Below are positions 1,910 to 64,000 of a stretch of 64,000 bases of DNA, piece after piece. The DNA lies in the NCBI GenBank assembly GCA_964364265.1, contig CAYILA010000005.1:6418-70417 (forward strand), in the 5' to 3' direction. Source of the DNA: an uncultured Candidatus Saccharibacteria bacterium (lineage in GTDB: Bacteria; Patescibacteriota; UBA1384; XYA2-FULL-43-10; 1-14-0-10-43-13). The notes below the pieces were generated by a model that was given only the letters and a program-made list of their open reading frames with translations, was not told where the DNA came from and did no database searches. Within the stretch, counting starts at the first letter, position 1, and each line of letters begins with the position of its first letter. The translations under genes were made by a program, and so were the position numbers.

Positions 1910-1921
1910 CGGGGCCTTCGT

Positions 1922-2935: not shown

Positions 2936-3468
2936 GAATAATCAGAAACACAATCGGATATCTTATTTCCTTGCCGGCCCGTTTGAAGGGAATGAAATTC
3001 GGCCGGAATAGTTTTATTGCCCCCGGCTACGATTTTCTTTTTGAACAGCTCAAGAATATCTCGGTAGGGGATGATTGTTTAATTGGAAAAAATGCTTGGA
3101 TTCACACCATCGATAGAGGTGAAATTAGAATCGGTGATCAGACGATAATCGGTCGTCGTGTCACCATTGCGGCCAGAAATAAAATTAAAATAGGAAAAAA
3201 CTGTTTGATTTCATATGATGCCTCGTTCCTCGATCATGACCATAATTTTAAAAACAAAAAGTTATCTCCTGCCAAAAGCGGATTAACTTCAGGCTACGAG
3301 ATTGAAATTGGAGACGGTTGCTTTATCGGCGCACATTCATTTATCTTAAAAGGGGTTCGCTTGGGAAGAAATTGTGTTGTAGGAGCAAATAGCGTGGTTA
3401 CAAAGTCATTTCCCAATTATTCTATGATCGGGGGTAATCCTGCCAAACTTATTAAAAAGATTAAATAA
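2932..3468 (+). CDS. hexapeptide-repeat (LbH) sugar O-/N-acetyltransferase
   Basis: Repeated [LIV]-G-x-x-x-x hexapeptides ([31 protein letters not shown]). ATGA overlap with the upstream GT2. Confidence 0.7.
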
Positions 3469-3478
3469 GTAGAACCAT

Positions 3479-31717: not shown

Positions 31718-31794
31718 TTAATTGTTCGATTGTCCAATTGTTCGATTGTTGGGAAGCGGCAACAATTGAGCAATGAAACAATTGAGCAATTGAG

Positions 31795-42667: not shown

Positions 42668-42745
42668 TTGTCATCCTAACGCTTTTATTCTTGTCATCCC
42701 GACCAACGCGGAGGGATCTTTAAAAAGATTCCTCGATTCGTTTCA
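42668..42745. repeat. palindromic repeat family 1 copy (gtcatcccga...gagggatc core), partial
   Basis: gtcatcctaacgc...gtcatcccgaccaacgcggagggatctttaaaaagattcctcgattcg shares the arms of the other family-1 copies. Confidence 0.6.
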
Positions 42746-47368: not shown

Positions 47369-48952
47369 ATGAACATTCACGAACTACAAGAAAAAATATC
47401 AGAGAAAGAGTTTGATTTTGTGCGCGGGATATTAAACATAACTCCGAATGTGCGGGTATTTCTGGTCGGGGGAATCGTCCGCGACGCCTTACTCGGCCGG
47501 GAGAATCCGGATTATGATTTTGTGGTTGAAAACATTGAAATCGATAAGTTGGTCGAGATATTAAAGGGTTACGGCAGGGTAACTGATGTTTCCGGACGCA
47601 ATTTCGGGGTGATTAAATTCACTCCGGAGGGGGAAAAACGGCAGTTTGACCTCTCCATACCACGAACGGAGAGGTATCAGAGCGGAAAGCGAAGGTCTGA
47701 CGCAGAGGTCAAGACCGATAAAGTGACTCTGAAAGACGATTTCATGCGCCGTGACTTTACGGTAAATGCAATCGCAATTCCATTGAATAAAGTCATTTCT
47801 ACAAAATCAGATCCATTGTCATCCCGAGCGACCGGAAGGGAGTCGAGGGATCTTTTAGAAGATTCCTCCGCTTCGGTCGGAATGACAGGAAACGACGGGT
47901 TGATGGAAATCTACGACCTCTTCGGTGGGGTTGAAGACATTCAAAACAAGATTATCCGGGCGGTTGGTGATCCGGAGGAAAGATTCGAAGAAGACCCGAC
48001 AAGGATCCTACGGGCCGTCAGATTTGCCTGCCGGCTTGATTTTGAAATTGAGCCAGAAACATTTTCGGCAATGAAAAAATTAAAAGGGGAGATATTAAAA
48101 ACATTTGAAAAAGAGGACGGAACCAAACTTCAAAGAGTGTCGAATGAGATGATTGGAATTGAAATCGCCAAGGCAATCGAAGGAAATCCGATTAAATTTT
48201 TAAGTCTTTTCGACGATTTGGGCTTACTTCCGGAGTTATTGCCGGAAATCGAAAAGTTAAAGGGTGTAGAACAGCCGATCGAGTGGCACAGTGAGGGTGA
48301 CGCCTTTGTCCATACTAAATTGGTGGTTTCAAATATTCCGGCCGATTCGTCGCTCGAACTAAAATTAGCGGCATTATTCCACGACATTGGAAAATATGAC
48401 ACGAGGGAACCCAAAACAGTAAATCAGCTAATCAGTAAATCAGCTAATCAGCAAACAATTCACTTTTATGGGCATGACAAGGTTTCGGTTGAAAAAGCGA
48501 GGCTAATACTAAATAGATACAGGTTCAAAAAAGATCTTATCGAAAATGTCTCTTGGTTGATCGAAAACCATATGAGGATTATGTCATTCCCGCAGATGAG
48601 AATATTTAAACAAAAAGATATGGCGCGCCATCCGCAATTTTTAAATCTGATCAAATTATCGGAGGCTGATGATGCGGCGACTATTCCGACCACGGCCAAA
48701 AAGTCGGTTTTTCTGCCGACGGTACGGGAAATCGTAAAACAGCTTGAGGAAGAAGAGAAAGCCGGCAAACCACGCCAGATATTGAACGGTAATGAAATCA
48801 TAGAACTATTAAAACGGGAAAAGCCGGGTTTTGATATTAAAAGTGAGGGAAAACTGATTGGAGAACTTAAGAGAAAAGTGAACGAAGAGTATGACGAAGG
48901 TCTTATTAAAAGCAAAAACGAAGCCCTTGATTGGCTTCGTTCCAATGTCTGA
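47369..48952 (+). CDS. cca: CCA-adding tRNA nucleotidyltransferase with HD domain, carrying an in-frame repeat-element insertion
   Basis: LVGGIVRDALLG, RRDFTVNAIAI, GDPEERFEEDPTRILRAVRF (head domain) and LAALFHDIGK (HD). Residues SSRATGRESRDLLEDSSASVGMT are encoded by a copy of the family-1 palindromic repeat (47818-47887). Confidence 0.8.
   Translation: MNIHELQEKISEKEFDFVRGILNITPNVRVFLVGGIVRDALLGRENPDYDFVVENIEIDKLVEILKGYGRVTDVSGRNFGVIKFTPEGEKRQFDLSIPRTERYQSGKRRSDAEVKTDKVTLKDDFMRRDFTVNAIAIPLNKVISTKSDPLSSRATGRESRDLLEDSSASVGMTGNDGLMEIYDLFGGVEDIQNKIIRAVGDPEERFEEDPTRILRAVRFACRLDFEIEPETFSAMKKLKGEILKTFEKEDGTKLQRVSNEMIGIEIAKAIEGNPIKFLSLFDDLGLLPELLPEIEKLKGVEQPIEWHSEGDAFVHTKLVVSNIPADSSLELKLAALFHDIGKYDTREPKTVNQLISKSANQQTIHFYGHDKVSVEKARLILNRYRFKKDLIENVSWLIENHMRIMSFPQMRIFKQKDMARHPQFLNLIKLSEADDAATIPTTAKKSVFLPTVREIVKQLEEEEKAGKPRQILNGNEIIELLKREKPGFDIKSEGKLIGELKRKVNEEYDEGLIKSKNEALDWLRSNV
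47818..47887. repeat. palindromic repeat family 1 copy, inserted in-frame in cca
   Basis: gtcatcccgagcgaccggaagggagtcgagggatcttttagaagattcctccgcttcggtcggaatgac is nearly the reverse complement of the copy at 60776-60876. Confidence 0.75.
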
Positions 48953-49006: not shown

Positions 49007-50890
49007 ATGGTCGAGAAAAATAATTACAAATTGCCGAAACTGAATAAGGCAAGAGTAAAACACCTATCAAAATTCGGGTTGCTAGGCATAACCGGCTTGA
49101 TAGTTGTTTTCTTGCTCTCTTTTGGCAGTTACTCGATTGTATTTTCAAACCGCGTTTTTGCCCGCCAGTTCATCGGGGATGAAAATTTCTCCTATATGAC
49201 TAGAGACCAAGTCAGAGGGATTATCGCAAAAAAATCAGCCGATCTGGCCGAAGCTGAAATAAAATTGATTTATGAATATGAAGCCGGCAACAAAGAGTAT
49301 ATTTTTAAGCCGAGCGATGTCGGAATCAACTATGATGTTGAGAAAACAGTAGATAGAATCTGGAATGTCGGTCGAAACGAGAACATCCAAAGGTCTTTTT
49401 GGAATCAATTGGTATCGGTCTTTGTTCCGACCAAACATAAGGCAGTCGTTTCATTTAATCAAGAGGTAATGAATAGCAAGATTGCCGAAATCGGTCAGGA
49501 AATCGACCAGCCCGAAAAAGATTTTTCACTCCAGTTCACCGGCGGGGAATTCGTCTTAACCTCCGACCGCGCCGCCGGCAAAAGAATCGATCAGAAAAAG
49601 ATTATCGAGTCTTTAAAAAATCAATTTTTGGTCTATAAAACTACCGAAATCAGTTTCGCTTCTGCCGTTTTCAAGCCGCAGGTTTCGCCGGAGAAAGCCG
49701 AGAGCCGTCTTAATGAGGCGAATAAAATTATCAGCAAGGGCGAGCTGGTTTTGTCATACGACAATCAGACCACGAAACTGGATGTAAATACAATCGGGGC
49801 GGTTATTAAATCAAAAACGAGCGGGGATGACCTTGAATTGGTATTTGACGATGCCCGCTTGAACCAATATCTTGATTCTTTGGCTCAACTAATCAATATT
49901 GAGCCGGTCAACGCCCGACTTCAGATTGTGAACGGTAAGGTTACTGCCTTTGATATCGCCCGGATTGGAAAAACCTTGCTCAAGGATCAGAGCCGGGAAA
50001 ATATTAAACAGGGTTTAATCTCGCGTATCAGCGATAGTGACACACCCACGGTTGTGCTGGCGATAGAAACAAAGAATCCGGATATTACCGAATCAAGTAT
50101 TTCCAGTTTGGGAATCGGCGAATTGATCGGCACCGGCACAACCCAATTCAAAAACTCTCCCGCTAATCGTGTACATAATATTCAAACCGGGGCTGCCGCC
50201 TTAAACGGCGTTTTGATTAAACCGGGAGAAGTTTTCTCGACAGTCGGCCGGCTGGGAGCAATCAACGACAAATCCGGCTATCTGCCGGAGCTGGTTATTA
50301 AAGAAAATTCTACTGTTCCGGAATATGGCGGGGGATTGTGCCAGGTTTCAACCACGCTTTTCCGGGCGGCGCTCAACGCCGGAATGGAGATAGTCGACCG
50401 GACCAACCACAGTTACCGCGTCAGTTACTACGAACCGCCGATCGGCATGGACGCCACCATCTACGATCCGGCGCCTGATTTCAAATTCAAAAATAATTAC
50501 GCCAGTTATGTCCTGGTTCAGGCAACAGTGTCGGGTTATTCTATTAAATTTGATTTCTATGGGACGAAGGATACTCGTGTTATAGAGATTGGGACCCCTT
50601 CGACTTGGGATCCGGTTGATCCGGTACCGAGAGTTAATGTTGAAACGGATACACTCCAACCGGGCGAGGAAAAACAGATTGAGAAAGCCCACCAAGGTAT
50701 TTCGGCTAAGTTTCATTACAAGGTGACCAAGGACGGCCAGGTTTTACAGGAGAGAGAATTCGTCTCCAAATATGTTCCCTGGCCGGAAAAATGGCTGGTC
50801 GGCAAACAACCGACTCCGGCGCCAGTTGATCCGGCCGCGATCCCCGTCCCGACACCCGTACCCGATCCGGCTGCAACACCGGCGACCTAG
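49007..50890 (+). CDS. VanW-family protein with N-terminal TM anchor and Pro-rich C-terminal tail
   Basis: YGGGLCQVSTTLFRAALNAGMEIVDRTNHSYRVSYYEPPIGMDATIY matches the VanW domain. N-terminal TM. C-terminal PTPAPVDPAAIPVPTPVPDPAATPAT. Confidence 0.7.
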   Translation: MVEKNNYKLPKLNKARVKHLSKFGLLGITGLIVVFLLSFGSYSIVFSNRVFARQFIGDENFSYMTRDQVRGIIAKKSADLAEAEIKLIYEYEAGNKEYIFKPSDVGINYDVEKTVDRIWNVGRNENIQRSFWNQLVSVFVPTKHKAVVSFNQEVMNSKIAEIGQEIDQPEKDFSLQFTGGEFVLTSDRAAGKRIDQKKIIESLKNQFLVYKTTEISFASAVFKPQVSPEKAESRLNEANKIISKGELVLSYDNQTTKLDVNTIGAVIKSKTSGDDLELVFDDARLNQYLDSLAQLINIEPVNARLQIVNGKVTAFDIARIGKTLLKDQSRENIKQGLISRISDSDTPTVVLAIETKNPDITESSISSLGIGELIGTGTTQFKNSPANRVHNIQTGAAALNGVLIKPGEVFSTVGRLGAINDKSGYLPELVIKENSTVPEYGGGLCQVSTTLFRAALNAGMEIVDRTNHSYRVSYYEPPIGMDATIYDPAPDFKFKNNYASYVLVQATVSGYSIKFDFYGTKDTRVIEIGTPSTWDPVDPVPRVNVETDTLQPGEEKQIEKAHQGISAKFHYKVTKDGQVLQEREFVSKYVPWPEKWLVGKQPTPAPVDPAAIPVPTPVPDPAATPAT

Positions 50891-50899
50891 GGAAGCGAA

Positions 50900-51010
50900 T
50901 AAATCCGAAATCCTAATTTCTAAATTCTAAACAAATTCTAATTTTTAAAATTTAGATATTTAGATTTCGACATTGTTTCGGATTTAGGATTTAGAGTTTT
51001 TTAATTTGTG
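50900..51010. repeat. palindromic repeat family 2 copy (cctaaatcctaaa / ttgtttcggatttaggattt TIR-like arms)
   Basis: aaatccgaaatcctaatttctaaattctaaacaa...ttgtttcggatttaggatttagag. Intergenic between the VanW-like gene and the P-type ATPase. Confidence 0.7.
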
Positions 51011-51019
51011 GGGCTTTAC

Positions 51020-53605
51020 ATGGAGGGGAATAAGTATTACCAGTGGACGGTAGATGAACTTTGCCGTCATTTCGAGGTTGACAAAGACGAGGGTCTTACC
51101 GAGAAGAAGGCCCATTCTTTGTTGGAAAAATACGGTCCTAATGTTCTGGAGGTGGTTGAAAAGAAAAGTTTCTGGGTGATTCTGGGTCGGCAGTTCTCCA
51201 ATTTCTTCGTCTGGCTCCTTCTGATTGCGGCGATTATCTCATATTTCGTTGACGGTCCGGTTCAGGCCGGGATATTAATATTGATTGTGGCCCTAAATGT
51301 CTTATTCGGATTTTTTCAGGAGAATAAAGCCGAAACCGCTATTTCTGATTTGAAAAAATCTTTCAAGTTAAGCTGTAAGGTAATCCGGGAGGGGAAACTT
51401 TCGGTGATTGAAAGCTCCGATCTGGTTGTCGGCGATATTGTATATCTTGATACCGGTGACCGGGTGCCAGCTGATATGAGGGTGATTGAAAGTGAATCAA
51501 TGCACGCCGATGAATCAATTTTGACCGGGGAATCTCTGCCGGTCGGTAAAAAAACTGATGGGCTGAAAGAGAGGACAGCTCTTGCCGATCAGAAAAACAT
51601 GCTTTTTGCTTCCACCATTGTCGTATCGGGACGCGGCAAGGGTTTGGTGGTTGAGACCGGTTCAAAAACGGAACTGGGGAAGATCGCCGGTTTGGTGAAC
51701 ACGATCGAATCGACCACCCCGCTTGGAAAAGAGATCGATTATCTGGGCGAGCTTCTGACCATCGTTTCGACTTTTGCGGCTGCCTTGGTATTTGTCCTGG
51801 GTTACTACCGCGATTACGAAATCTGGCCGCTTCTCACATTTTCAATCGCTCTCTTGGTGGCGGCGGTGCCGGAATCCCTGCCAACCATTATAACGCTCTC
51901 ATTGGCGATCGGGACTTCCAAAATGGCTAAGAAAAAAGCGATTGTCCGGCGCTTGGGGGTAATCGAATCGCTTGGTTCTATTAATGTAATCGTGACCGAT
52001 AAAACCGGAACTTTGACTGACAACAAGCTTTCAATCGGTTTGGTTGCCCTGAAAAAAAAGAAGGATTTTGAAATTATTGATGTGAATCGCGATCTGCATT
52101 ATCTGAAAGGAAAAAAGCAGGAGTTAAAAAGGATTTTATTGCCGGCGCTGATCTGTTCGAATATTGAAGATGACGAGGAGGGTGGTTGGATTGGCGACCC
52201 AATCGAGTCGGCAATCGCCAAAAAAGCGGTTGAGCTAAAGGCCGATATATTGCCAGAAGCCGGAAAATTTCAGCGGGAGATGGAGGTGCCTTTTGATTCC
52301 GATAAAAAATATATGGCGGTTTACGGCAAAGCTTATGGAAGAAAGATATTGATAGTTAAAGGTGCGGCCGAAGTGATAACTCGGTTCTGCCGGTTGTCCG
52401 AAACGGAGCGAGAAGAGATTAAAAACGAGGTCGCCGATTTGAGCTCAAAGGGATATAAAGTTATCGCGGTAGCGCAGTCCAGCCACTCGGCCTTAAAAAA
52501 TATGGATTTTTACGGGCTTATCGCCGTTATCGACGAACCTTCAGTTGGCGTGGCGGATGCCATTTCTCGGACAATTTCGGCCGGAATTCGGCCGATAATG
52601 GTAACCGGCGACCATCCCGAAACGGCCCGCTTTATTGGCGAGAAAGTTGGTTTGGAGGCGCAGGATTACGAAGTCGCAACCGGCCGGGAGATTGAAGAGA
52701 TGACCGAAAAGGCGCTGGAAAGTTTTCTAAAAGATGCTAAAATCATCGCTCGGGTGACGCCGGAGGGAAAGATGCGGATTGTCCTGACCCTGCAGAAAAT
52801 GGGCGCAAAAGTAGCGGTGATGGGCGACGGGGTAAACGACGCGCCGGCTCTGAAAGAGGCGAGCGTCGGCATCGCTATGGGTAAAAAGGGCACCGATGTC
52901 GTCCGCGACACCGCCGACATAGTTCTGACAAACGATAAATATTCCACGGTTGTTACCGCCATCGAATACGGTCGGACAATTTACGACAACATCCGCAACG
53001 CCTTTATTTTCTTATTGTCGAGTAACTTCGGCGAGATATCTTTGGTCACGACCGCTTTCTTGTTGAATTGGCCGATACCGTTTACCACTTTGCAAATATT
53101 GTGGATCAATATGGTCACCGACGCCCTGCCGGCTCTCTCTTTCGCTTTTGAAAAACCGCATTCTTCGGTTCTGGCCAGCGGGCCTCGAAAAAGCGAAAAC
53201 AACGGTCAACGGCAGATGCTTGCATTTGCTTTTTCCTTATCCTTAATTCAAACGGTTGTCGGGATGTTGCTTTACAGATGGGCTTTGGGAAGAGGCGTGG
53301 CCGAAGCTCAAACTCTGGTTTTTACCTATATCGTATTTTCGGCGGTGATAATCGCATTTTCAATCCGTTCGAAAGAGAGAATCTGGCAGAATTTTAGGTC
53401 GTTTTTCGCCAATAAAATCCTTCTTTACGCCGTCGGCTTGGCTTTCCTTTTGCAAGCACTCTTATTTATCGAGCCATTGAGCGGGATTTTTAAGATAACG
53501 CCGCTTGACGCGGTTGAAATTATCGTTCTCTTGCTGTCAGTTCTAATCTCTTTTGCTCTGGCCGAAATCATCAGGTTTATATTTGATAGAAAAATATCGG
53601 AGTAG
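51020..53605 (+). CDS. cation-transporting P-type ATPase (P2-type, Ca2+/Mg2+-ATPase-like)
   Basis: DKTGTLT phosphorylation motif, TGES, MVTGDHPETA, GDGVNDAPAL, and N-terminal cation-ATPase-N block (TVDELCRHFEVD). The start is probably ATG at 51020. Confidence 0.85.
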   Translation: MEGNKYYQWTVDELCRHFEVDKDEGLTEKKAHSLLEKYGPNVLEVVEKKSFWVILGRQFSNFFVWLLLIAAIISYFVDGPVQAGILILIVALNVLFGFFQENKAETAISDLKKSFKLSCKVIREGKLSVIESSDLVVGDIVYLDTGDRVPADMRVIESESMHADESILTGESLPVGKKTDGLKERTALADQKNMLFASTIVVSGRGKGLVVETGSKTELGKIAGLVNTIESTTPLGKEIDYLGELLTIVSTFAAALVFVLGYYRDYEIWPLLTFSIALLVAAVPESLPTIITLSLAIGTSKMAKKKAIVRRLGVIESLGSINVIVTDKTGTLTDNKLSIGLVALKKKKDFEIIDVNRDLHYLKGKKQELKRILLPALICSNIEDDEEGGWIGDPIESAIAKKAVELKADILPEAGKFQREMEVPFDSDKKYMAVYGKAYGRKILIVKGAAEVITRFCRLSETEREEIKNEVADLSSKGYKVIAVAQSSHSALKNMDFYGLIAVIDEPSVGVADAISRTISAGIRPIMVTGDHPETARFIGEKVGLEAQDYEVATGREIEEMTEKALESFLKDAKIIARVTPEGKMRIVLTLQKMGAKVAVMGDGVNDAPALKEASVGIAMGKKGTDVVRDTADIVLTNDKYSTVVTAIEYGRTIYDNIRNAFIFLLSSNFGEISLVTTAFLLNWPIPFTTLQILWINMVTDALPALSFAFEKPHSSVLASGPRKSENNGQRQMLAFAFSLSLIQTVVGMLLYRWALGRGVAEAQTLVFTYIVFSAVIIAFSIRSKERIWQNFRSFFANKILLYAVGLAFLLQALLFIEPLSGIFKITPLDAVEIIVLLLSVLISFALAEIIRFIFDRKISE

Positions 53606-53655
53606 CGTTATGTTTCAATAGTTTGGAAACACCCTCTTGCATATTTGATTATTAC

Positions 53656-53689
53656 CCCCGCTATAACAAACCAGTTTGTTATAGCGGGG
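53656..53689. terminator. bidirectional hairpin between convergent P-type ATPase and pyrG
   Basis: Perfect palindrome ccccgctataacaaac-ca-gtttgttatagcgggg (16-bp arms). A related hairpin lies at 47285-47318. Confidence 0.5.
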
Positions 53690-53724
53690 TTAAATGTTGT
53701 GTAATAATCGTAAATAATTTAGAA

Positions 53725-55449
53725 CTATGACTTATTGCCGGCCGCTTTAATGAAGGCCATAAAGAGAGGATGCGGGCGGAGAGGACGGGATTGGAATTCG
53801 GGATGGAATTGTGTTCCGACAAAGAAGGGGTGATTCTTAACTTCGACAATTTCGACCAGATCCCTTTCCGGATTGACACCGGCAACCACCAACCCGCATT
53901 TTTCCAACTGTTTTCTGTACTTATTATTCAATTCGAAACGGTGTCGGTGACGCTCTACCACGACTCCGTCGTGGAAATCCGAATATCTAATATCTAAATT
54001 CGAAACATATTTTGAATTTTCTTTTTTAGAATTTTCGATTTGTTTAGGATTTAGGATTTCTGATTTAGGATTTCTGTAAGCTTCGTATGAAATAGTTCCT
54101 TCTTTTAGCTTACAGCTATATCCGCCCAAACGCATCGAACCGCCGTAATCTTTCTCTTCCAGTTTTTTCTTCTGATCCGGCATTATATGGATGACCGGAT
54201 ACGGAGTTTTCGGATCGATCTCCTCGGTATGCGCCCCTTTCAGCCCGCAGACATTGCGGGCGAATTCAATGGTAGCGATTTGCATACCATAGCAGAGACC
54301 GAAGTAAGGAATCTTCTGTTCGCGGCAATACTTGGCGGTCAAAACTTTGCCTTCAATGCCGCGGGAACCGAATCCGCCCGGCACGATGATACCGTTATAC
54401 TGGTCAAGCTCTTTTAATTTCTTGGGATCTTTTTCAAATTCTTCGGCGTTGATCCAAGTCATTTTTGGACGAAGTTCCTGTGTCCAGGCGGCGTGTTTGA
54501 CCGACTCGATTATCGAAATGTAGGAATCTGCCAGGACATAATCGCCGGTGCCGAAATATTTGCCGACAAACCCGATTTTAACTTCTTTTCGGCCGTTCTT
54601 GGCGTGCCGGGCGAATTCTTCCCATTTCGAAAGATCGGATTTTTTTGGTCGCAATCCAAATAGTTTTAAAATTTTGTTGCCGAAATCCTCTTTTTCAAAA
54701 TTAATCGGAACATCATAAATTGAATCGACATCGGGGGCGGAGATGGCATTTTCCGGTTTGATTGAACAAAAAGTGGCCAGCTTTTCGCGGCGTTTGGCGT
54801 CAATCGGTTTTTCGGCGCGGCAGAGGATAAAATCGGCCTGTATGCCGCAGGAGTTTAATTCCCGCGAGGCATATTGTGTCGGTTTGGTTTTCATTTCGCC
54901 GACCGTGCCGGGAATTGGGAGATAAGAGACCAAGATGAAAATGACATCGGCCGGTCTTTTCATTTTCATCATTCTGGCCGCTTCTAAAAAGAGCAGATTT
55001 TCATATTCACCGACTGTTCCGCCGATCTCGACGATGGTGAAATCGGCCTTGGCCGCCTTGCCGGCTTCTAAAATTCTTCGTTCAATTTCCTCCGGGATGT
55101 GGGGCACGACTTGGACACATTTTCCACCGTAGTCCAAGTTTCTTTCTTTATGTATGACGGTCTCATAAATCCGGCCGGTGGTCATGTAATTAATTTTTTT
55201 GATTTCTTCGTCTAAAAATCTTTCGTAGTTGCCGCAGTCCTGATCGGTTTCGTCGCCGTCAATGGTTACAAAAACCTCGCCGTGTTCAGTCGGGTTCATA
55301 GTGCCGGCGTCGACATTTATATAGGGATCGGCCTTAATGGCGGTAACGCCATAGCCCTTGCTTTTTAAAATAGTGCCGATCGAAGCGGCAGCTATTCCTT
55401 TTCCAACCGATGACATTACTCCGCCAACCACAAAGATAAACTTGGACAT
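53725..55449 (-). CDS. pyrG: CTP synthase, carrying an in-frame repeat-element insertion
   Basis: N-terminal KFIFVVGGVMSSVGKGI, the GATase domain with GLCYGMQ and ERHRHRFE. The extra segment RNPKSEILNPKQIENSKKENSKYVSNLDIRYSDF before ERHRHR is encoded by a family-2 repeat copy (~53978-54078). Confidence 0.9.
   Translation of the reverse strand: MSKFIFVVGGVMSSVGKGIAAASIGTILKSKGYGVTAIKADPYINVDAGTMNPTEHGEVFVTIDGDETDQDCGNYERFLDEEIKKINYMTTGRIYETVIHKERNLDYGGKCVQVVPHIPEEIERRILEAGKAAKADFTIVEIGGTVGEYENLLFLEAARMMKMKRPADVIFILVSYLPIPGTVGEMKTKPTQYASRELNSCGIQADFILCRAEKPIDAKRREKLATFCSIKPENAISAPDVDSIYDVPINFEKEDFGNKILKLFGLRPKKSDLSKWEEFARHAKNGRKEVKIGFVGKYFGTGDYVLADSYISIIESVKHAAWTQELRPKMTWINAEEFEKDPKKLKELDQYNGIIVPGGFGSRGIEGKVLTAKYCREQKIPYFGLCYGMQIATIEFARNVCGLKGAHTEEIDPKTPYPVIHIMPDQKKKLEEKDYGGSMRLGGYSCKLKEGTISYEAYRNPKSEILNPKQIENSKKENSKYVSNLDIRYSDFHDGVVVERHRHRFELNNKYRKQLEKCGLVVAGVNPERDLVEIVEVKNHPFFVGTQFHPEFQSRPLRPHPLFMAFIKAAGNKS
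53978..54078. repeat. palindromic repeat family 2 copy inserted in-frame in pyrG
   Basis: gaaatccgaatatctaatatctaaattcgaaaca...tcgatttgtttaggatttaggatttctgatttaggatttctg. Translated on the minus strand as part of PyrG. Confidence 0.7.
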
Positions 55450-55497
55450 ATTTTTCCTCCGGAAAATGACTTTACATAAATAAAAACAGACTCACTT

Positions 55498-55565
55498 GTC
55501 ATCCCGAGCGAGCGTAGCGAGTCGAGGGATCTCTCCATTCTCGAAATCTCACCAGTCGAGACAAC
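55498..55565. repeat. palindromic repeat family 1 copy (half element)
   Basis: gtcatcccgagcgagcgtagcgagtcgagggatctctcc..., intergenic between pyrG and the NTase gene. Confidence 0.6.
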
Positions 55566-55664
55566 AAAAATCTTTTGATTTTTGTTGGTTTTTGTTTTCA
55601 TTCTAATAATAATTTAGAAACTTGGCAAGTGAATGTTGTGGACATTGTGATATATTAAAAATTA

Positions 55665-56366
55665 ATGAAAGCAGGGGATAAAAAGGCGGCCGAAAAATAT
55701 TTAAAAAAGGCAAGATTGCTTTCGATATTTTTGCAATGGGCGCCGTTTCTGCGTTGTATAATCTTAAACGGTTCATTGGCAGCCGGAACGGCAAAAGAAT
55801 CATCCGATATCGACATTCTAATCATCGCCAGGCGGGGTCGGATTTACACCGTCCGTTTTTGTGTCAATTCCTTCGCCGCAATCCTTGGCATTAAAAGATC
55901 GAATGATAATAAATCGCATGCCGGGAAATTTTGCTTCAATTATTTTCTAACCGATAATTTTCTGACCGTTCCGATCCGCCGCGGACGGAAAGTCGACCGG
56001 TATTGCGCCGATAATTATAGCAGAAGCGTTTTGGTCTGGGGGAAACAAACCGTATTCGACCGGTTTATGGAGGAGAACGAGGAGCTGTTTAGGAAAGCGA
56101 CGACCGACGACCGACGACCCGCCTACCGGCGAGGCAAGCCGCCGACCGAGGTTGCACTCCCTATGAAAATATTCCATCCCGTATTTGTTATAGGGAGAAT
56201 ATTAGAATTTTTCCTCAACGGCTGGTTGGGAAAGAGGATGGAGAATGTTTTGAAAAGATATCAGATTAGAAAAATCGAAAAAGATGAAAGAACTAAAAAA
56301 TATCCCGACTTTATCGTTTATTCCGACCGAGAGTTGCGCTTCCACCCGCCGAAAAGGGTCAATTGA
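55665..56366 (+). CDS. nucleotidyltransferase-domain protein (Pol-beta-like minimal NTase)
   Basis: GSLAAGTAKESSDIDILII matches the G[SG]x9-13Dx[DE] NTase motif. Contains a 3x gacgacc heptamer tract (56099-56119). Confidence 0.5.
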   Translation: MKAGDKKAAEKYLKKARLLSIFLQWAPFLRCIILNGSLAAGTAKESSDIDILIIARRGRIYTVRFCVNSFAAILGIKRSNDNKSHAGKFCFNYFLTDNFLTVPIRRGRKVDRYCADNYSRSVLVWGKQTVFDRFMEENEELFRKATTDDRRPAYRRGKPPTEVALPMKIFHPVFVIGRILEFFLNGWLGKRMENVLKRYQIRKIEKDERTKKYPDFIVYSDRELRFHPPKRVN

Positions 56367-56455
56367 CAATGGGCTCTCTTTCCGCTATCATTTTTCTTGG
56401 CGAGGCCATTTACCCCCTTATGGTCCTCGCCAATTTTCAAAGATTTATAAGGGGA

Positions 56456-56479
56456 AAGAGAGGGAAATCTCTCTTTTTT
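56456..56479 (+). terminator. rho-independent terminator after the NTase gene
   Basis: aagagag-ggaaat-ctctctt followed by ttttt. Confidence 0.5.
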
Positions 56480-56590
56480 AGTTCTCCCCCTAGAGTAGGG
56501 GGAGTAAGTGGGGGTAGAAAAGGCAGCATGGTTAAGTAATTACTATCATGCTACCACCCCTAACCCCTCCTAATCTAGGAGTGGAACCGC

Positions 56591-56621
56591 TTGACAAAAT
56601 GTAAAACATACTTTACATTTT
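56591..56621 (+). promoter_or_regulatory. putative groESL promoter (-35 TTGACA) overlapped by a 10-bp perfect inverted-repeat operator
   Basis: ttgaca at 56591-56596. The inverted repeat aaaatgtaaa-acatac-tttacatttt (56596-56621) covers the spacer and -10 region. It lies 55-85 bp upstream of the groES start. No CIRCE consensus is present. Confidence 0.45.
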
Positions 56622-56674
56622 CTAATGTATAGCAAGCTCGCACATAAATTATTAATTAAATGCTGGGAGGCAAA

Positions 56675-56953
56675 ATGTTTAAACCATTAGCTGATCGGGT
56701 TCTGGTCAAACCGCTGGAAGCCGAGCAAATCACAAAAGGCGGAATCGTCATTCCCGACACCGCCAAAGAAGCGCCGGCCGAAGGCGAAATCGTCGCCCTT
56801 GGCGACGGCAAGATGAAAGATGGCAAGAGCTATCAATTTTCAGTCAAAAAAGGGGACAAAGTAGTTTATTCAAAATACGCCGGCGATGAATTAAAAGTTG
56901 ATGGCAAGGAATATAAAGTGATGAAAGAGGAAGACATACTCGGGATTTTATAA
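56675..56953 (+). CDS. groES: co-chaperonin GroES
   Basis: MFKPLADRVLVKPLEAE...GGIVIPDTAKE...GEIVALGDG. RBS gggagg. Confidence 0.9.
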   Translation: MFKPLADRVLVKPLEAEQITKGGIVIPDTAKEAPAEGEIVALGDGKMKDGKSYQFSVKKGDKVVYSKYAGDELKVDGKEYKVMKEEDILGIL

Positions 56954-56988
56954 GTCAAAAGGCAAAAGTCTATAAAGTGACACAGTAG

Positions 56989-57085
56989 TGTCATCCCGAC
57001 TGAGCGGAGCGAACGGAGGGATCCCTCGGCTCGTTGTACTCGCTCGGGATGACATTCGCCACTTTCACCTTTATGGACTTTCGAC
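56989..57085. repeat. palindromic repeat family 1 copy (full hairpin) between groES and groEL
   Basis: gtcatcccgactgagcggagcgaacggagggatccctcggctcgttgtactcgctcgggatgac plus the cattcgccactttcac...ctttcgact tail shared with the 60776 copy. Confidence 0.75.
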
Positions 57086-57088
57086 TAG

Positions 57089-58738
<1,650 letters not shown>

Positions 58739-58851
58739 TAGAATCGTATTAAGTATCTAGTATTAAGTATTCCGATTGATTTCAAAAAAGAAGGCGTCCG
58801 TAGGATGTCTTCTTTTGCTTAATACATAATACATTATACTGGATACTTGTC

Positions 58852-59367
58852 TTAAACCATTTCCGCTTCGATGGCGGAGGTTTTGACATCGAGCGTGTCG
58901 TAATCGTTGTTAACCGTGATATGCTTTCCTTCAATCTTAGTGATGGCGGAGGTTGGAATTATTCTCTCTGAAACCAAGCTTTTGACATAAATCTTGGTGA
59001 TTGAAAGGTCGGTTGCTCGGACTAAATAGTCGAATACTTTGCCCAAATTTTTACCTGATTTTGAACGGACATGCTGGTTGATTCCATGCAACTTGTGATG
59101 ATAGGCCTCTTTGAGACGAACCGAATCATCAAAATTAGTGATCGCATCTTCGTCTTGGATGATAACGCCGTCGTGGCCAATCTCTAAAATATCGGTTTCG
59201 GTAATCACTTTCATTTTAGCGAAGGGGAGTATTGAGGTTCTAACGACCAGACCATAGATCGAGATGTCGCTTTTCTTGATTATTATATCCATAACATAAC
59301 CGGCCTTTGTTTGAGTCTTCATCTCAAACACCGGAGTCCCCATCAGCTTTGTGTATGGAATTATCAT
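58852..59367 (-). CDS. PRC-barrel-like domain protein (tentative)
   Basis: 171 aa with two ~80-aa repeats of beta-rich sequence (LMGTPVFEMKTQTKAGYVMDI / KSGKNLGKVFDYLVRATDLSI), reminiscent of PRC-barrel/YlmC-type proteins. Low certainty. Confidence 0.35.
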   Translation of the reverse strand: MIIPYTKLMGTPVFEMKTQTKAGYVMDIIIKKSDISIYGLVVRTSILPFAKMKVITETDILEIGHDGVIIQDEDAITNFDDSVRLKEAYHHKLHGINQHVRSKSGKNLGKVFDYLVRATDLSITKIYVKSLVSERIIPTSAITKIEGKHITVNNDYDTLDVKTSAIEAEMV

Positions 59368-59478
59368 TATTTAAAATTATACCATAAAAAAATTGATGCC
59401 ATATTTGACATTAGATTTTTCAAGTTCTACAATGTAAGAAAGCTCGGAAAGAGCCAAGTTATAATGTTGGAGGAAAAT

Positions 59479-60171
59479 ATGGTAGATACAAATCTTGGAA
59501 CAACAAGCGCGCCCGAAACAGGAATTCCGCCGGTTGATACTAAGGCGGAGGCACCGGCCGAAGCGGAAACCAAACCCGGTGATAGTATTGAATTTGGTTT
59601 TGATCCAAAAAAAGAGGAAGTTACGGCTGAAAAGGTCACTGCCGAAGCGCCGGATCTGACGGTACCGAATACTGAACCGAATCCGATTGCTAGCGGTGTA
59701 GATGATGCCGTCAAAAGCGAGCCGGTGTTGCCAGTCGCAGAGCCTGCTGCCCCGACAAATCCCGAGAATTCTGATCTGATAAATAGTCCGGCAGACAAGA
59801 TGGAGGAGATTAGAAGCACTATTGCGGGTATGCCCGATACACCACCAACCGCCGATCCAACCGCGCCGGAAACTACAGCGCCTGTGGCCCCGCCGGTTGA
59901 GGCGGCAGTCGGCGCACAGCCAGAAACAACAGGTGCGTCGGCAAGCACCGATCCGGAAGATCATTGGAGCGTAGGTCAAGCTCCCCCAGAAAATCCCGCT
60001 GCTTCGCCGTTTGTCGAACAGACAGCTTCTTTGGGATCAGATAAAAAAACCGGTGACGATAAGAATGTCGTCGAGAACAAACCAGAGGTTAAGAGAAGCT
60101 GGTTTCAAAAACTCTTTGGCATTGGGAATAATACGAAAGAAACCGGCCAGAATCCTGAAGACACTAAGTAA
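59479..60171 (+). CDS. acidic low-complexity (Pro/Ala/Thr/Glu-rich) hypothetical protein
   Basis: RBS ggagg before the ATG at 59479. Protein is compositionally biased (PETGIPPVDTKAEAPAEAETKPGD...) with no domain. Confidence 0.35.
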   Translation: MVDTNLGTTSAPETGIPPVDTKAEAPAEAETKPGDSIEFGFDPKKEEVTAEKVTAEAPDLTVPNTEPNPIASGVDDAVKSEPVLPVAEPAAPTNPENSDLINSPADKMEEIRSTIAGMPDTPPTADPTAPETTAPVAPPVEAAVGAQPETTGASASTDPEDHWSVGQAPPENPAASPFVEQTASLGSDKKTGDDKNVVENKPEVKRSWFQKLFGIGNNTKETGQNPEDTK

Positions 60172-60172
60172 T

Positions 60173-60730
60173 TTATGCCCGCTCGACATAGGAACCGTCG
60201 CGAGTGTCGATAAGAATTTTGTCGTTTTCTTTAATAAAAAGAGGGGCATCAACCAGGACGCCGGTCTCGATCGTGACTCTCTTGTTTACTGTGCCGGCCG
60301 AGTTGCCTCTAATTCCGGGAGGAGCGGAGGTGACGGCGAAAGCCATTTTAATCGGCAGTTCAATGTTAATCGGCTCGTTCTCGAAATAGAGAATATCAGT
60401 CGAGGCGCCCTCGACCAGGTATCTTTTGCTGTCGGCCACTTTTGAAATCGGGATCTCAAACTGGTCATAAGTTGCATTATTCATAAAGTAGGCGTTTGCC
60501 TCATCGGAATATAAATAAGTAGCGGTCTTTTTGGCCAGAGTAGCGTTGTCTAGTTTGTCGTTTCCCTGAAAGGTCTTGTCAATAACGCCGCCGGTTCGCA
60601 AATTCTTCAACTTGGTTTTGACAATCGCCCCGCCCCGCCCCATTTTGGAATGAGAATAAGACAAAACGATGTAAGGATCGCCTTCGTAAGTAATTTTTGT
60701 GCCGGTTTTTAGATCTGTGATTCCAAGCAT
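60173..60730 (-). CDS. efp: translation elongation factor P
   Basis: MLGITDLKTGTKITYEGDPYIVLSYSHSKMGRGGAIVKTKLKNLRTG matches the EF-P KOW/OB architecture; 185 aa. Confidence 0.85.
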   Translation of the reverse strand: MLGITDLKTGTKITYEGDPYIVLSYSHSKMGRGGAIVKTKLKNLRTGGVIDKTFQGNDKLDNATLAKKTATYLYSDEANAYFMNNATYDQFEIPISKVADSKRYLVEGASTDILYFENEPINIELPIKMAFAVTSAPPGIRGNSAGTVNKRVTIETGVLVDAPLFIKENDKILIDTRDGSYVERA

Positions 60731-60775
60731 GAAACCTCCGGTTTCTAGTCAAAGGGTCTTATAGATACACTATTG

Positions 60776-60876
60776 TGTCATTCCGACCGACCGAAGGGAG
60801 CGGAGGAATCTTTCAAAAGATCCCTCAACTCGCTATGCTCGCTCGGGATGACATTCGTCACTTTCGACTTTCGACT
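60776..60876. repeat. palindromic repeat family 1 copy (full element) between efp and rpsR
   Basis: gtcattccgaccgaccgaagggagcggaggaatctttcaaaagatccctcaactcgctatgctcgctcgggatgacattcgtcactttcgactttcgact. Confidence 0.75.
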
Positions 60877-60881
60877 CTTCG

Positions 60882-61121
60882 TTATTTGATTACGAATGGC
60901 AAAAGAGCCAAGTGTCTAGCCTGTTTGATTGCCCGCGCCAGTTCGCGCTGGTGACGGCGGCAGGTTCCGCTGCGCTGGGCGCTGTCGATTTGGTTCCAGC
61001 GGTTTAGGTAACGGGTGAGCATGGTGACATTTTTGTAATCAAGCTCGTTTACCTTTGCCTTGCAAAACAAGCATTTCTTAATCCTTGGCGTAAAACTTTC
61101 TTCTCTTTTTTGATAATACAT
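60882..61121 (-). CDS. rpsR: 30S ribosomal protein S18
   Basis: CLFCKAKVNELDYKNVTMLTRYLNRWNQIDSAQRSGTCRRHQRELARAIKQARHLALLPF. Confidence 0.85.
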   Translation of the reverse strand: MYYQKREESFTPRIKKCLFCKAKVNELDYKNVTMLTRYLNRWNQIDSAQRSGTCRRHQRELARAIKQARHLALLPFVIK

Positions 61122-61134
61122 ATGGCTCCTTCGG

Positions 61135-61300
61135 AGTAAATTCTAAATTCTAATATCGAAATCCTAAACAATTTCTAAATCCAAATTATCAAAATTGAAA
61201 TATTTTAGTCATTCGATTTTTTGATTTCTAATTTGTTTCGGATTTAGGATTTAGCATTTCGGATTTCCTTTCTAAACTTTCGGTTTAGAAAGGTATTTCG
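61135..61300. repeat. palindromic repeat family 2 copy between rpsR and ssb
   Basis: ttctaaattctaatatcgaaatcctaaacaatttctaaatcc...atttgtttcggatttaggatttagcatttcggatttcc. Confidence 0.7.
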
Positions 61301-61812
61301 TCTATATCGATCTCATCCTCGGTTTTTTCAGCCTTTTCAGCTTTTTTTGGGTCGGCCACTTCCGATTCGGAGGCGATCTTTTCAACCGGATTTTCCGACC
61401 CGCCTGCTCCTCGAGACTGAGCGACCTCGGAGTCGATGGCCGGCGAGGCAGGTTTGCTTTCGCCATATGATCCTCCGCCGCGATTTCCCAGAACATTAAC
61501 CATCTCGGCGACAATCTCGGTTTTGTATCTTTTGACTCCGTCCTGGCCTTCCCAGTTTCTGGTCTGGATCCGTCCTTCGACATAAACCGGCGTCCCTTTT
61601 CTTAACATCGGGGTGACATTTTCGGCCTGCTGACCCCAAACCACGACATCGTGATACTCGACCGCCTCGCCGCCCTCGCCGCCGTCCCGTCCTTTCCACT
61701 TACGGTTGGTGGCGACCGAAAACGATGTTACGGCTTGGCCGTTTGGGGTGTAACGCATCTCGGCGTCTTTGGTTGTGTTTCCCAATATCTGCGCTCGATT
61801 TAAACTTAACAT
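61285..61812 (-). CDS. ssb: single-stranded DNA-binding protein
   Basis: LNRAQILGNTTKDAEMRYTPNGQAVTSFSVATNRKWK OB-fold, Gly-rich linker, acidic C-terminal tail DEIDIDEIPF. Confidence 0.85.
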   Translation of the reverse strand: MLSLNRAQILGNTTKDAEMRYTPNGQAVTSFSVATNRKWKGRDGGEGGEAVEYHDVVVWGQQAENVTPMLRKGTPVYVEGRIQTRNWEGQDGVKRYKTEIVAEMVNVLGNRGGGSYGESKPASPAIDSEVAQSRGAGGSENPVEKIASESEVADPKKAEKAEKTEDEIDIDEIPF

Positions 61813-61862
61813 TTTGCCCTCAATTCTTTATTAATTATCAGTTCCTCATTTGTACCATACTA

Positions 61863-62594
61863 TTAAAGGTCATCTTTTAATAGATTGTCGAGCTCTTCAT
61901 CAAGTTTAGCCAATCTTTCGGCTTCGGATGAGACAACCGGCTTGGTTCTCTTTCTGGTTGGCTTCTCAGGTTTTTCTGTTTTCTCTTCAGCAACTGCCTC
62001 GAATTCCTTGGTTTCGGATTCGGTTACTTCTTCTTTAACTTCATCAACCTTCTTAGCTCTTGGTTTCTTGACTTTCGGCTCCTCTGCGTCCGGTACCTCG
62101 ATTTCAACTTGTGGTTCAGCTGACTTGCTTACTAGCTTACTTGCTGACTCACTTGTTTCTTCTTCCTGTTCTCTCTTGGCCATCAGATTTCTGGATTCCT
62201 CGGTCTCGCCAAGGACGGCCTCAAAGCTCTTCTCTCCGCCGATTGCGGCTTCGATATCTTCGGTGCCGACAATCTCTTCGGAGGTTAAAGTCAATTTCTC
62301 TTCGCCCATCTCACGCAAAATCAAAAGGTGGCGGATGATTTGGGAAGTGATTTTCAAATCGTGCTCCATTTCACGGACTTTTTCGGCCGCGATCTCAAAA
62401 TTAAGAGTGACATAGGTGGCAAATTCCTGTTTGTTAATCGGGTAGGCCAGTTTGCGTCTCTTCCAGATTTCCTCTTTCAGAACTTTGCCTTCGGCGTCAA
62501 CAACAAAACCGCCGACTTTGCCGGTTATTTTATTCAGGTCGCTCTCCGCGACTTTATCAGAAACGAGATAAGTGAGTTCGTATTGTCTCATCAA
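61863..62594 (-). CDS. rpsF: 30S ribosomal protein S6 with long acidic C-terminal extension
   Basis: MRQYELTYLVSDKV... S6 core (~100 aa) followed by a ~140-aa Glu/Lys-rich tail. Confidence 0.8.
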   Translation of the reverse strand: MMRQYELTYLVSDKVAESDLNKITGKVGGFVVDAEGKVLKEEIWKRRKLAYPINKQEFATYVTLNFEIAAEKVREMEHDLKITSQIIRHLLILREMGEEKLTLTSEEIVGTEDIEAAIGGEKSFEAVLGETEESRNLMAKREQEEETSESASKLVSKSAEPQVEIEVPDAEEPKVKKPRAKKVDEVKEEVTESETKEFEAVAEEKTEKPEKPTRKRTKPVVSSEAERLAKLDEELDNLLKDDL

Positions 62595-62782
62595 TATCCT
62601 TTCTATGGCTATGCCAATCCCGCGTAGCCCCTTTGGGGCGAAGTGGGATGGAAACTCTCGGTCTTTCAGACGAGAGAAAAAGGTTAATTAAATTGTAGGA
62701 TTACTTTAGCATAAGTTCATATAAAACACAAGCTTTTTGGGATAGAATAAATTAGTGTGATTGGGGGGATTTGGGGAGATAA

Positions 62783-63349
62783 ATGGCTGAATCAGGCTAT
62801 CACTATTTAAAGACATATATGTTGGCGACGGTCGTTTACGATTTGACAGTCGAATTTTGTGATAAATTTTTGCCTGGTCGGGAATATTTAAGGATGAGGG
62901 AACAGATGATTCACGCAGGAAGGAGCGGCCGGCAAAATATCGCTGAAGGTTACGAGGAAAAAAGTTTACAAAGCTATATTAAACTATTGGGTGTGGCTGA
63001 TGCTTCACTTGAAGAATTGTTGCTTGATTTTTAAGACTATCTTCGTCAGCGCAAATTGCCGTTATGGGAGAAGGACGACCCAAGGGTTAGGGCGTTTCGG
63101 GAGTTTCGGGTTGTTTGGGTAGATAATAATACCCTAAATACCCTAACGCTCCCAAATGATCCGGTTGAGGCGGCCAATTTGATGATCACCTTGATTTCAA
63201 TGACCACTTTTCTATTATCAAAGCAGATGACCAAATTGGAAGAGAAATTCGTAACTGAAGGCGGTTACAGAGAGAAGATGTTTAAAAAACGGGTGGAGTA
63301 TCGCCAGCATAATTACCCCAAATACCCTAATCTCCCTAATAATCAATGA
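62783..63349 (+). pseudogene. four-helix-bundle (23S rRNA IVS-protein-like) gene interrupted by in-frame TAA and a degenerate repeat insertion
   Basis: 62783-63034 encodes the N-terminal 4HB-family block (NIAEGYEEKSLQSYIKLLGVADASLEELLL). The same frame continues after the TAA at 63032-63034 into 63056-63349. The downstream part contains ccctaaataccctaa / gtttcgggagtttcggg motifs. Confidence 0.4.
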
Positions 63350-63350
63350 G

Positions 63351-64000
63351 TTATACATTAAACCTGAAAATAACAACATCACCATCTTGAAAGATGTATG
63401 TTTTACCTTCTGTTCTTACCATCCCGTGTGCTTTGGCGCCGGACCAGCCGCCCTGGGCGTAGAAATCCTGCCAGGGGATGACCTCGGCGGCGATGAAACC
63501 TTTTTGGAAATCAGTATGGATCGCTCCGGCCGCTTCCGGCGCGGTGGCGCCTTTTTTCACCGTCCAAGCCCGCGTTTCCTTCTCACCGGAGGTGAAGAAA
63601 GTAATCAATCCAAGTGTTTCGTAGGCTTTTTTAATCAATGAATCTAAACCGGTTTCAGATAAACCTAGGGTCTCAAGGTATTCCTTCTTCTCTTCATCTG
63701 TTAATTCGTTTAGGTCGGATTCAATCTTCGCGCTGATGGGAATGATGTGCCGTTTGATGTCATCCTGAGCGTTAGCGAAGGATCTGGGCGCCAGCCGCAT
63801 TATCGCTTCGCTGGATTCTTCACTTCGTTCAGAATGACTAACAGAAGCCAGTTGCTCTTCCGAAACGTTAGCGACATAGATGACCGGTTTCATGGTCAGA
63901 AGCGCCAAGCCCTTGAGTAATTCTTCCTCCCGTTCGTCCAGTTTCGCCTCGCGGGCGTTCTTGCCCTCATATAAGACATCTTTGATCTTCTGTAATCCCG
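63351..64000 (-). CDS. ychF: ribosome-binding ATPase YchF (C-terminal part; 5' end outside window)
   Basis: C-terminal TGS-domain sequence (TRAWTVKKGATAPEAAGAIHTDFQKGFIAAEVI...GDVVIFRFNV). The minus-strand frame stays open to the window edge (VIYVANVSEEQL coiled-coil region). Confidence 0.8.
   Translation of the reverse strand, partial: GLQKIKDVLYEGKNAREAKLDEREEELLKGLALLTMKPVIYVANVSEEQLASVSHSERSEESSEAIMRLAPRSFANAQDDIKRHIIPISAKIESDLNELTDEEKKEYLETLGLSETGLDSLIKKAYETLGLITFFTSGEKETRAWTVKKGATAPEAAGAIHTDFQKGFIAAEVIPWQDFYAQGGWSGAKAHGMVRTEGKTYIFQDGDVVIFRFNV

Follow-up and report, generated by a model that had tools for sequence, protein, structure and literature searches.

The pyrG gene (CTP synthase, CTPS) of a groundwater bacterium of the Candidate Phyla Radiation (CPR) carries a palindromic element in frame. 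This element was analyzed in a 64-kb stretch of DNA, hereafter the window, which forms part of the 70,246-bp ENA contig Hain_H51_01um_R1_185 from the 0.1 µm fraction of Hainich groundwater. We consider it probable, at roughly two chances in three, that the pyrG segment is a miniature, without an open reading frame (ORF), of a selfish cassette of the intervening sequence (IVS) type. The segment is homologous to the arms of cassettes that carry a four-helix-bundle gene (PF05635), it is absent from orthologues, its frame is open against the odds, and other palindromes occupy the same loop in relatives. The best-supported description is an in-frame passenger, similar to the Rickettsia palindromic elements (RPEs), derived from an IVS-type four-helix-bundle cassette that occurs across phyla. 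The four-helix-bundle gene, which a preliminary description of the window mentioned only in passing, is the key to the identity of the element.

The pyrG Gene and Its In-Frame Insert

The pyrG gene is located at 53725–55449 on the minus strand. It is the intact host gene of the insertion and encodes a complete product of 574 aa (Pfam CTP_synth_N, 4e-104; GATase, 1e-34), whose closest named relatives belong to Patescibacteria (CPR) and Berkelbacteria (72–77% identity). The ORF-less palindromic element lies at 53965–54078 on the minus strand, is about 102–111 nt long, and is in frame with the gene. It is composed of arms of degenerate AAATCCN/NGGATTT heptamers and encodes the peptide (R)NPKSEILNPKQIENSKKENSKYVSNLDIRYSDF; the peptide RNPKSEILNPKQIENSKKENSKYVSNLDIRYSDF is the exact translation of the pyrG segment. 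The GC content of the segment is 0.29, against approximately 0.45 across the gene.

The alignment with the Thermus CTPS (1vco) placed query residues 460–496 opposite three residues, which leaves approximately 34 extra aa. The alignment with solved CTP synthases stops at query residue 459 and restarts at 497, where 1vco spans only 461–465. The insert ends four residues upstream of ERHRHR in the glutaminase domain, so that the insertion of about 34 aa that the preliminary description had predicted in the GATase domain, just upstream of this motif, was confirmed. The segment is absent from distant orthologues, including the solved CTPS structures, and also from the nearest insert-free CPR orthologues, PyrG proteins of 548–552 aa with only about 15 residues at the insert position. 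A near-identical pyrG allele (P0122) carries the insert too. In an AlphaFold2 model with a mean pLDDT of 73.9, built from a 21-sequence alignment, residues 461–491 were coil with pLDDT below 50.

The length of the pyrG element is a multiple of three and the element is stop-free. Open frames are uncommon in the family: across 62 short members, 15 of 372 frames (4%) contained no stop codon. A pure array of this heptamer presents TAG or TAA every 7 nt, so that all six frames are closed within three units. Only copies with a length of 3n and mutated in-frame stop units could therefore persist in an essential gene. In the pyrG copy, AAATCAG stands precisely where AAATCCT followed by AAA would give an in-frame TAA. 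Judging from the sequence, the insert is presumably translated together with PyrG.

In other genomes, the NPKSE-type frame was also used by in-frame copies in a CPR LeuRS, a Saganbacteria RadA, a PfkB kinase, and a Bacteroidales alkaline phosphatase. Querying the protein database for the insert peptide through a word index gave no candidate. The LeuRS gene of Patescibacteria SKW25 (427–3231 of its locus, plus strand; L015) contains at least three in-frame copies or half-copies, including one full two-arm copy that translates as NSKSKIPNSKQSQNSNDKNSKSFENLNFKNSDLFRIWNLEFS and one copy in the editing domain.

Three Window Copies Belong to One Family

The preliminary description proposed a dispersed palindromic family in the window with a third copy inside pyrG on the minus strand, and both points were borne out. 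The first intergenic copy, an ORF-less hairpin at 50882–50999, lies between a VanW-domain gene (49007–50890, plus strand) and a P-type ATPase gene (51008–53605, plus strand). The second, at 61124–61290, lies between ssb (61285–61812, minus strand) and rpsR, which encodes S18 (60882–61121, minus strand). None of the three copies (111–167 nt) contains an ORF. The 13-mer GGATTTAGGATTT has exact matches in the window only at 50980, 54047, and 61240. With up to two mismatches allowed, 14 sites matched where 5.3 would be expected, a number attained in 0 of 100 shuffles. When the 105-nt pyrG segment was compared with the whole window by Smith–Waterman alignment, the two intergenic copies ranked at the top with scores of 76 and 63, followed by a match with a score of 34. 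For 40 dinucleotide-shuffled queries the mean score was 32.7 and the maximum 40, so the nucleotide likeness claimed for the pyrG and intergenic copies is real.

A MAFFT alignment of the three copies showed a mean column identity of 68%. The likeness is not limited to the repeats but reaches the non-repetitive core TTGTTTMGGATTTAGGATTT and the inner arm, over approximately 100 nt at 65–74% identity. Tandem Repeats Finder reported a period of 7 nt in all three copies. All three fold as long imperfect hairpins, and inverted arms of 17–51 nt with 70–88% complementarity were measured; the folding z-score of the pyrG site was −3.3 on the plus strand and −2.3 on the mRNA strand. An Rfam scan of 50000–64000 (E ≤ 1) found nothing at the elements and only two chance miRNA-like matches at 56488–56581.

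The copy at 61124–61290 retains AATGACTAAAA, a remnant of the start-codon region of the cassette described below, and terminates at a CTCCGAAGGAG mini-hairpin that holds the Shine–Dalgarno sequence of S18. The order of right arm, CTCCGAAGGAG, and start codon was seen at 61122–61135 upstream of rpsR and in four viral loci (L128, L131, L133, L139). The mini-hairpin would sequester the Shine–Dalgarno sequence, and it is present ahead of genes in several IMG/VR contigs.

Distribution of the Family

The 18-mer GTTTMGGATTTAGGATTT was scanned over 185,579 species-representative genomes and gave at least 120 loci. By a hand tally of record titles among the loci listed, about 32 belong to CPR, about 27 to Planctomycetota, and about 13 to Desulfobacterota; Nitrospirota, Chloroflexota, Omnitrophota, Acidobacteriota, and one ANME-1 archaeon are also represented. 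The idea of a lineage-specific system, raised in the preliminary description, is thus not tenable. The usual layout of a locus is (AAATCCK)n heptamer arrays, AAACAAATTCAAATGACCAAAA, a variable center, and the mirror image. A few matches, in Flavobacterium, Pedobacter, and Bacteroidales, consist simply of (CCTAAAT)n arrays. The motif of the family was also found on 14 IMG/VR viral contigs. Approximately 1 Mb of motif-bearing loci contained 78 paired elements, of which 65 were at most 220 nt long and five exceeded 450 nt.

The viral contigs with the right arm, CTCCGAAGGAG, and ATG suggested a 5′-UTR or translation-enhancer role. This was dropped as a general role because, at the genome loci, the arm adjoins 47 gene ends and 35 gene starts. 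Resemblances to attC, parS, and promoters were examined by eye and did not fit. TIGR-Tas arrays were set aside because they are processed into units of about 36 nt, far longer than the 7-nt units here, and because no Tas gene was noticed.

PF05635 Cassettes Carry the Same Arms

Clustering of ORFs showed that a small four-helix-bundle protein recurs in several element loci. In four of them (L011, L099, L085, L095), its gene lies exactly between the left and right arms of the family. The gene was assigned to PF05635, the "23S rRNA-intervening sequence protein" (IVP), with an E-value of 6e-16. Relatives of this protein were then taken from JGI metagenomes by protein similarity alone (the best 80 of at least 574), and 78 of the 80 genes had sufficient flanking DNA. 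Their flanks were significantly complementary inverted sequences (z > 4) in 61 of the 78. The consensus of the left arms, with the ATG of the gene inside, is AAAT.CGAAAT.CGAAAT.CGAAAT.CGAAACAAATTCAAATGACCGAAA, so that AAAT.CG occurs four times ahead of the ATG; the consensus of the right arms is TGTTTTGAACATTTG.AAATTTGAATTTTGAATTTGTTTCGGATTTCGA.ATTCGAATTTCGGATTT.

Profiles (nhmmer) were built from the arms of 76 independent IVP loci and run against the whole window. These profiles from protein-selected loci replaced one from the 18-mer-selected loci, since the latter mostly recovers its own selection motif. The arm profiles matched only the three copies, in both orientations, with E-values of 2e-13 to 4e-5: 61124–61290 (1.8e-13, 4.7e-13), 50882–50999 (2e-11, 7e-9), and 53965–54077 (1.7e-9, 3e-7). 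Hence the three window copies share homology with the arms of PF05635 cassettes but lack the gene.

Plasmids of cultured bacteria showed the same arrangement. Of seven four-helix-bundle genes examined on them, from Nostoc (two), Planktothrix, Pseudanabaena, Chlorohelix, Bernardetia, and Treponema, all seven lie between tandem-heptamer arrays whose inverted complementarity is significant (z = 4–18). Each gene has its own heptamer, and the arrays of the Treponema and Pseudanabaena genes are inverted only in part. Four such plasmid genes (L222, L225, L226, L221) lie beside defense or recombination genes, namely an N-6 DNA methylase with a helicase-related protein, cas1, an MmeI-type restriction-modification enzyme, and xisH. 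In two metagenome IVP loci (L141, L151), the left arm and the first IVP codons are tandemly duplicated upstream of a full cassette, which points to an element that was inserted into another or partly duplicated.

The window has a disrupted PF05635 gene of its own at 62755–63349 on the plus strand, with an N-terminal fragment at 62783–63031 (Pfam, 4.8e-9) and a C-terminal fragment at 63056–63346. It is bracketed by G-rich/C-rich inverted arrays at approximately 62755–62782 and 63310–63340, and it is split at 63083–63150 by a hairpin of the same G-rich array type. The preliminary description had placed a degenerate relative of the pyrG element at about 63090–63340. Its location inside a disrupted four-helix-bundle gene was correct, but no GGATTTA-family profile matched the arrays at 63083–63340. 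These arrays are G-rich with a period of 9 and thus form a different array subfamily. The window IVP gene is of the same cassette class as the pyrG element, with another array subfamily.

The preliminary description regarded the element as a miniature inverted-repeat transposable element (MITE). In the strict sense, the element would then have arisen by deletion from an insertion sequence (IS), would be non-autonomous and moved in trans by the IS transposase, and would have landed in frame by chance. The element is short and multi-copy, with terminal inverted arms and three copies in 64 kb, some elements are nested in or adjoin other palindromic elements, and in-frame fusions of MITEs are documented, for example the RPEs (PMC10969869). 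We nevertheless consider this origin unlikely. All-versus-all clustering of 1316 ORFs from 134 element loci revealed no recurrent transposase-like family. The long form holds a PF05635 gene in place of a transposase. Arms of the same sequence range from CPR to Planctomycetota to an archaeon, which would be unusual for the termini of one IS. No target-site duplication was seen by eye at the borders of pyrG and of the cassettes, whose A/T-rich repetitive ends blur the borders.

Other Palindromes at the Same Loop

Many CPR PyrG proteins have an insert in the same loop. Four relatives carry other palindromes, mutually unrelated in sequence, at the same point of pyrG: a CGAAGGC/GCCTTCG heptamer hairpin (P0002), a hairpin of 8/16-mer arrays of the GCTGAC kind (P0006), and members of the GTCATTCCCG...CGGGAATGAC family (P0077, P0091).

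Such repeated occupation might indicate an adaptive insertion, with the hairpin acting as an mRNA processing or stability element, or the loop, close to the ERHRHR motif, changing how GTP activates the enzyme or how CTPS filaments form. The reading frame has stayed open, only four residues separate the insert from a conserved glutaminase-domain motif, and intergenic copies abut ribosome-binding sites. However, the inserts at this site are unrelated among relatives (four different palindromes), conservation is otherwise the same in the nearest orthologues that have no insert, the model predicts no structure for the segment, and the gene-adjacent arm shows no orientation bias (35 starts versus 47 stops, as above). 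An adaptive role is accordingly improbable, and the insert is most likely a tolerated passenger, presumably neutral.

It is very improbable that the loop grew in place by heptamer slippage and hairpin template-switching, with its likeness to the family a convergence of AT-rich repeats: the arrays do have a 7-nt period and variable unit numbers, Coxiella strains do differ in heptamer copy number (PMC4990558), and in syntenic relatives other heptamer hairpins occupy the orthologous intergenic sites and the same pyrG loop, but the likeness covers the non-repetitive core and inner arm, the Smith–Waterman score far exceeds those of shuffled queries, profiles from unrelated metagenomic loci detect the pyrG site, and a segment with a GC content of 0.29 stands within a gene of about 0.45.

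Proposed Origin of the pyrG Insert

The pyrG copy is classed as a derivative and not as a full cassette because it has no ORF, while long relatives with the same arms carry one. We propose that the full cassette would consist of a four-helix-bundle gene of about 120 codons (PF05635, S23p) in the loop of a long imperfect hairpin. Its arms would be inverted arrays of degenerate heptamers, with AAATYCGAAATYCGAAACAAATTCAAATGACC on the left (ATG being the start codon) and TTTGAATTTTGAATTTGTTTCGGATTTCGRATTT on the right, and the short copies would be the arms alone. By analogy with MITEs, the short copies may have been derived from the full cassette by deletion of the ORF. One short copy would have entered a length-variable linker of pyrG, four residues ahead of ERHRHR, by insertion or recombination. 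In an essential gene, a filter would then retain only a copy with a length of 3n and mutated in-frame stop units. The ribosome would read through this copy and produce a disordered loop of about 34 residues rich in Asn, Lys, and Ser. Since no transposase or reverse transcriptase is encoded, the four-helix-bundle protein and host functions are the candidates for mobility.

Several observations weigh against this origin. No empty-site allele was found, as the sole close alleles (at least 99% identical) all bear the insert, and insertion is therefore deduced solely from orthologues of at most 77% identity. Because the arms are repetitive, neither a target-site duplication nor sharp element ends could be defined. 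The left arm in pyrG is weak: the profile derived from the 18-mer did not see it, and the matches that cover it have E-values of 7e-7 and 4e-5. The window holds no intact PF05635 gene with GGATTTA-type arms, and its own copy is differently armed. The direction of change is also debatable, since ORFs could have been lost from cassettes or captured by pre-existing hairpins. Syntenic relatives have heptamer hairpins of other units at orthologous intergenic positions, so turnover in place rather than transposition is possible. Finally, because the AlphaFold2 model is mediocre, it suggests only weakly that the insert is disordered.

Other Palindromic Repeats in the Window and Its Relatives

The preliminary description also reported a second palindromic family in frame in another gene, and this was found. 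The GT4 glycosyltransferase gene at 41396–42649 (plus strand) contains a second composite in-frame insert at 41560–41680. The insert consists of GTCATTCCCGCGGAAGCGGGAATCC, GGATCCTCGGATCAAGTCCGAGGATG, and 8-mer arrays (TAACAATT) in this order, with a conceptual translation of 38 residues, and the arrays resemble an intergenic hairpin at 31712–31797. Arrays of 8/16-mers (CAGTAAATCAGCTAAT ×2.4, AGCTGACTTGCTGACT ×2) also lie inside two further housekeeping genes: the CCA-adding enzyme gene (47369–48952, plus strand; array at 48417–48455) and the gene of ribosomal protein S6 (61863–62594, minus strand; array at 62118–62149). Arrays of the same GCTGAC kind make up the pyrG insert of relative P0006. 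The S6 protein of the window has 243 aa, about twice the usual length.

The contig of the syntenic CPR relative P0002 (L122), from the same Hainich site, has heptamer-periodic imperfect hairpins in at least 7 of the 16 listed intergenic gaps longer than 60 nt (712–788, 2792–2929, 3401–3549, 3793–3898, 5472–5621, 7254–7398, and 16803–16970), and their units are all different. In the ssb–rpsR spacer, this contig and another (L125) have CTTGTTTCTTGATTATT arms; in the window, the GGATTTA family takes this place. Intergenic regions of the window contain a dispersed palindromic family that is GC-rich, TGTCATCCCGAGCGAGCG...GGGATGACA, at 55497–55540, 56989–57054, 60776–60853, 47837–47880, and 42711–42734. 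Relatives of it occupy the pyrG loop in P0077 and in P0091, as well as the centers of several AT-rich elements of other phyla (L007, L012, L036, L114). Between groEL (57101–58738, plus strand) and the gene at 58852–59367 (minus strand), a GC-rich terminator-like hairpin at 58746–58839 is nested in inverted heptamer arrays (GTATTAA ×3.7/TAATACA ×2.9), and the region has a folding z-score of −5.0.

Comparison with Known Systems

The 23S rRNA IVSs of Leptospira, Coxiella, Brucella, and Xanthomonas (PF05635) resemble the long relatives described here, with an ORF in a stem loop of terminal inverted repeats. They also share a sporadic, horizontal-looking distribution and the lack of a known mobility enzyme. 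The Coxiella IVS has an S23p ORF and terminal inverted repeats cut by RNase III, with tandem GACAGAT heptamers at the start of the ORF in strain-variable number; its origin and mobility were stated to be unknown (PMC4990558). Heptamers at the ORF start are likewise a feature of the PF05635 cassettes here. The 23S rRNA IVSs lie in helix 25 or 45, whereas the copies here are intergenic or within the protein-coding pyrG, and the pyrG copy differs from an IVS in its lack of an ORF and in its heptamer sequence. The pyrG copy would have to be translated and not excised by RNase III as an IVS is, because excision would cut the mRNA.

RPEs are palindromes of about 100–150 bp that lie in frame in unrelated housekeeping genes and add peptides considered compatible with the fold (PMC10969869, citing Ogata 2000 and 2002). 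The pyrG element likewise lies in frame and stop-free in a housekeeping gene of a host with a reduced genome, and is predicted to be translated. RPEs occur in Rickettsia only; the family here spans many phyla. They encode a conserved peptide in many copies, whereas most copies here are intergenic and closed in all frames. We know of no link of RPEs to a four-helix-bundle gene or to heptamer arrays.

MITEs and the hairpins formed by doublets of repetitive extragenic palindromic (REP) sequences, known as REPINs (Correia, ERIC, Nezha, REP doublets), are similar to this family in being short, multi-copy, hairpin-forming, and mostly intergenic, occasionally intragenic. Unlike them, the family has arms made of tandem heptamer arrays with the same sequence across phyla, no transposase or RAYT (REP-associated tyrosine transposase) partner in the 134 loci, and no visible target-site duplication.

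The short tandemly repeated repetitive (STRR) sequences of cyanobacteria and others and the TAACTGA repeats are also intergenic arrays of 7-nt units, often just upstream of start codons. The TAACTGA repeats of Beggiatoaceae are patchy across phyla with "no mechanism evident" (PMC4679880). Both types were described as direct arrays, unlike the inverted arms here. On the Nostoc and Planktothrix plasmids, heptamer arrays of this sort bracket four-helix-bundle genes. To our knowledge, STRR or TAACTGA repeats have not been described as inverted arms of gene cassettes or as in-frame protein insertions. In the literature, of which our coverage was incomplete, nothing specific was found on the sequence of the element, on MITEs of CPR bacteria, or on the mobility of PF05635. 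PF05635 cassettes were nowhere tied to dispersed palindromes or in-frame insertions in this incompletely covered literature, and novelty is thus unproven.

Significance

We tentatively speculate, with the odds somewhat against it, that PF05635 (S23p/Avd-like) genes with inverted heptamer arrays may form one widespread, unrecognized class of mobile cassette that has neither transposase nor reverse transcriptase. The rRNA IVSs and stray four-helix-bundle genes would be its full copies. The STRR-like arrays and the hairpins of CPR and Planctomycetota would be gene-less miniatures, either intergenic or adding disordered loops to PyrG, LeuRS, and RadA. If this is true, rRNA IVSs with S23p ORFs and the heptamer repeats of cyanobacteria and other bacteria, both unexplained, would trace back to one kind of cassette. 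Heptamer types paired with protein subfamilies would then hint that the pentameric protein recognizes its own arrays. A role would also be suggested for a very common protein family, in which four-helix-bundle proteins bind the heptamer arrays that flank their genes. When housekeeping genes of metagenome-assembled genomes contain artifact-like inserts of low complexity, the arm profiles would mark these as genuine and not as misassembly, and such insertions affect the alignment, modeling, and annotation of CPR proteins. Selfish DNA would supply the streamlined genomes of CPR bacteria with protein insertions, much as RPEs do in Rickettsia.

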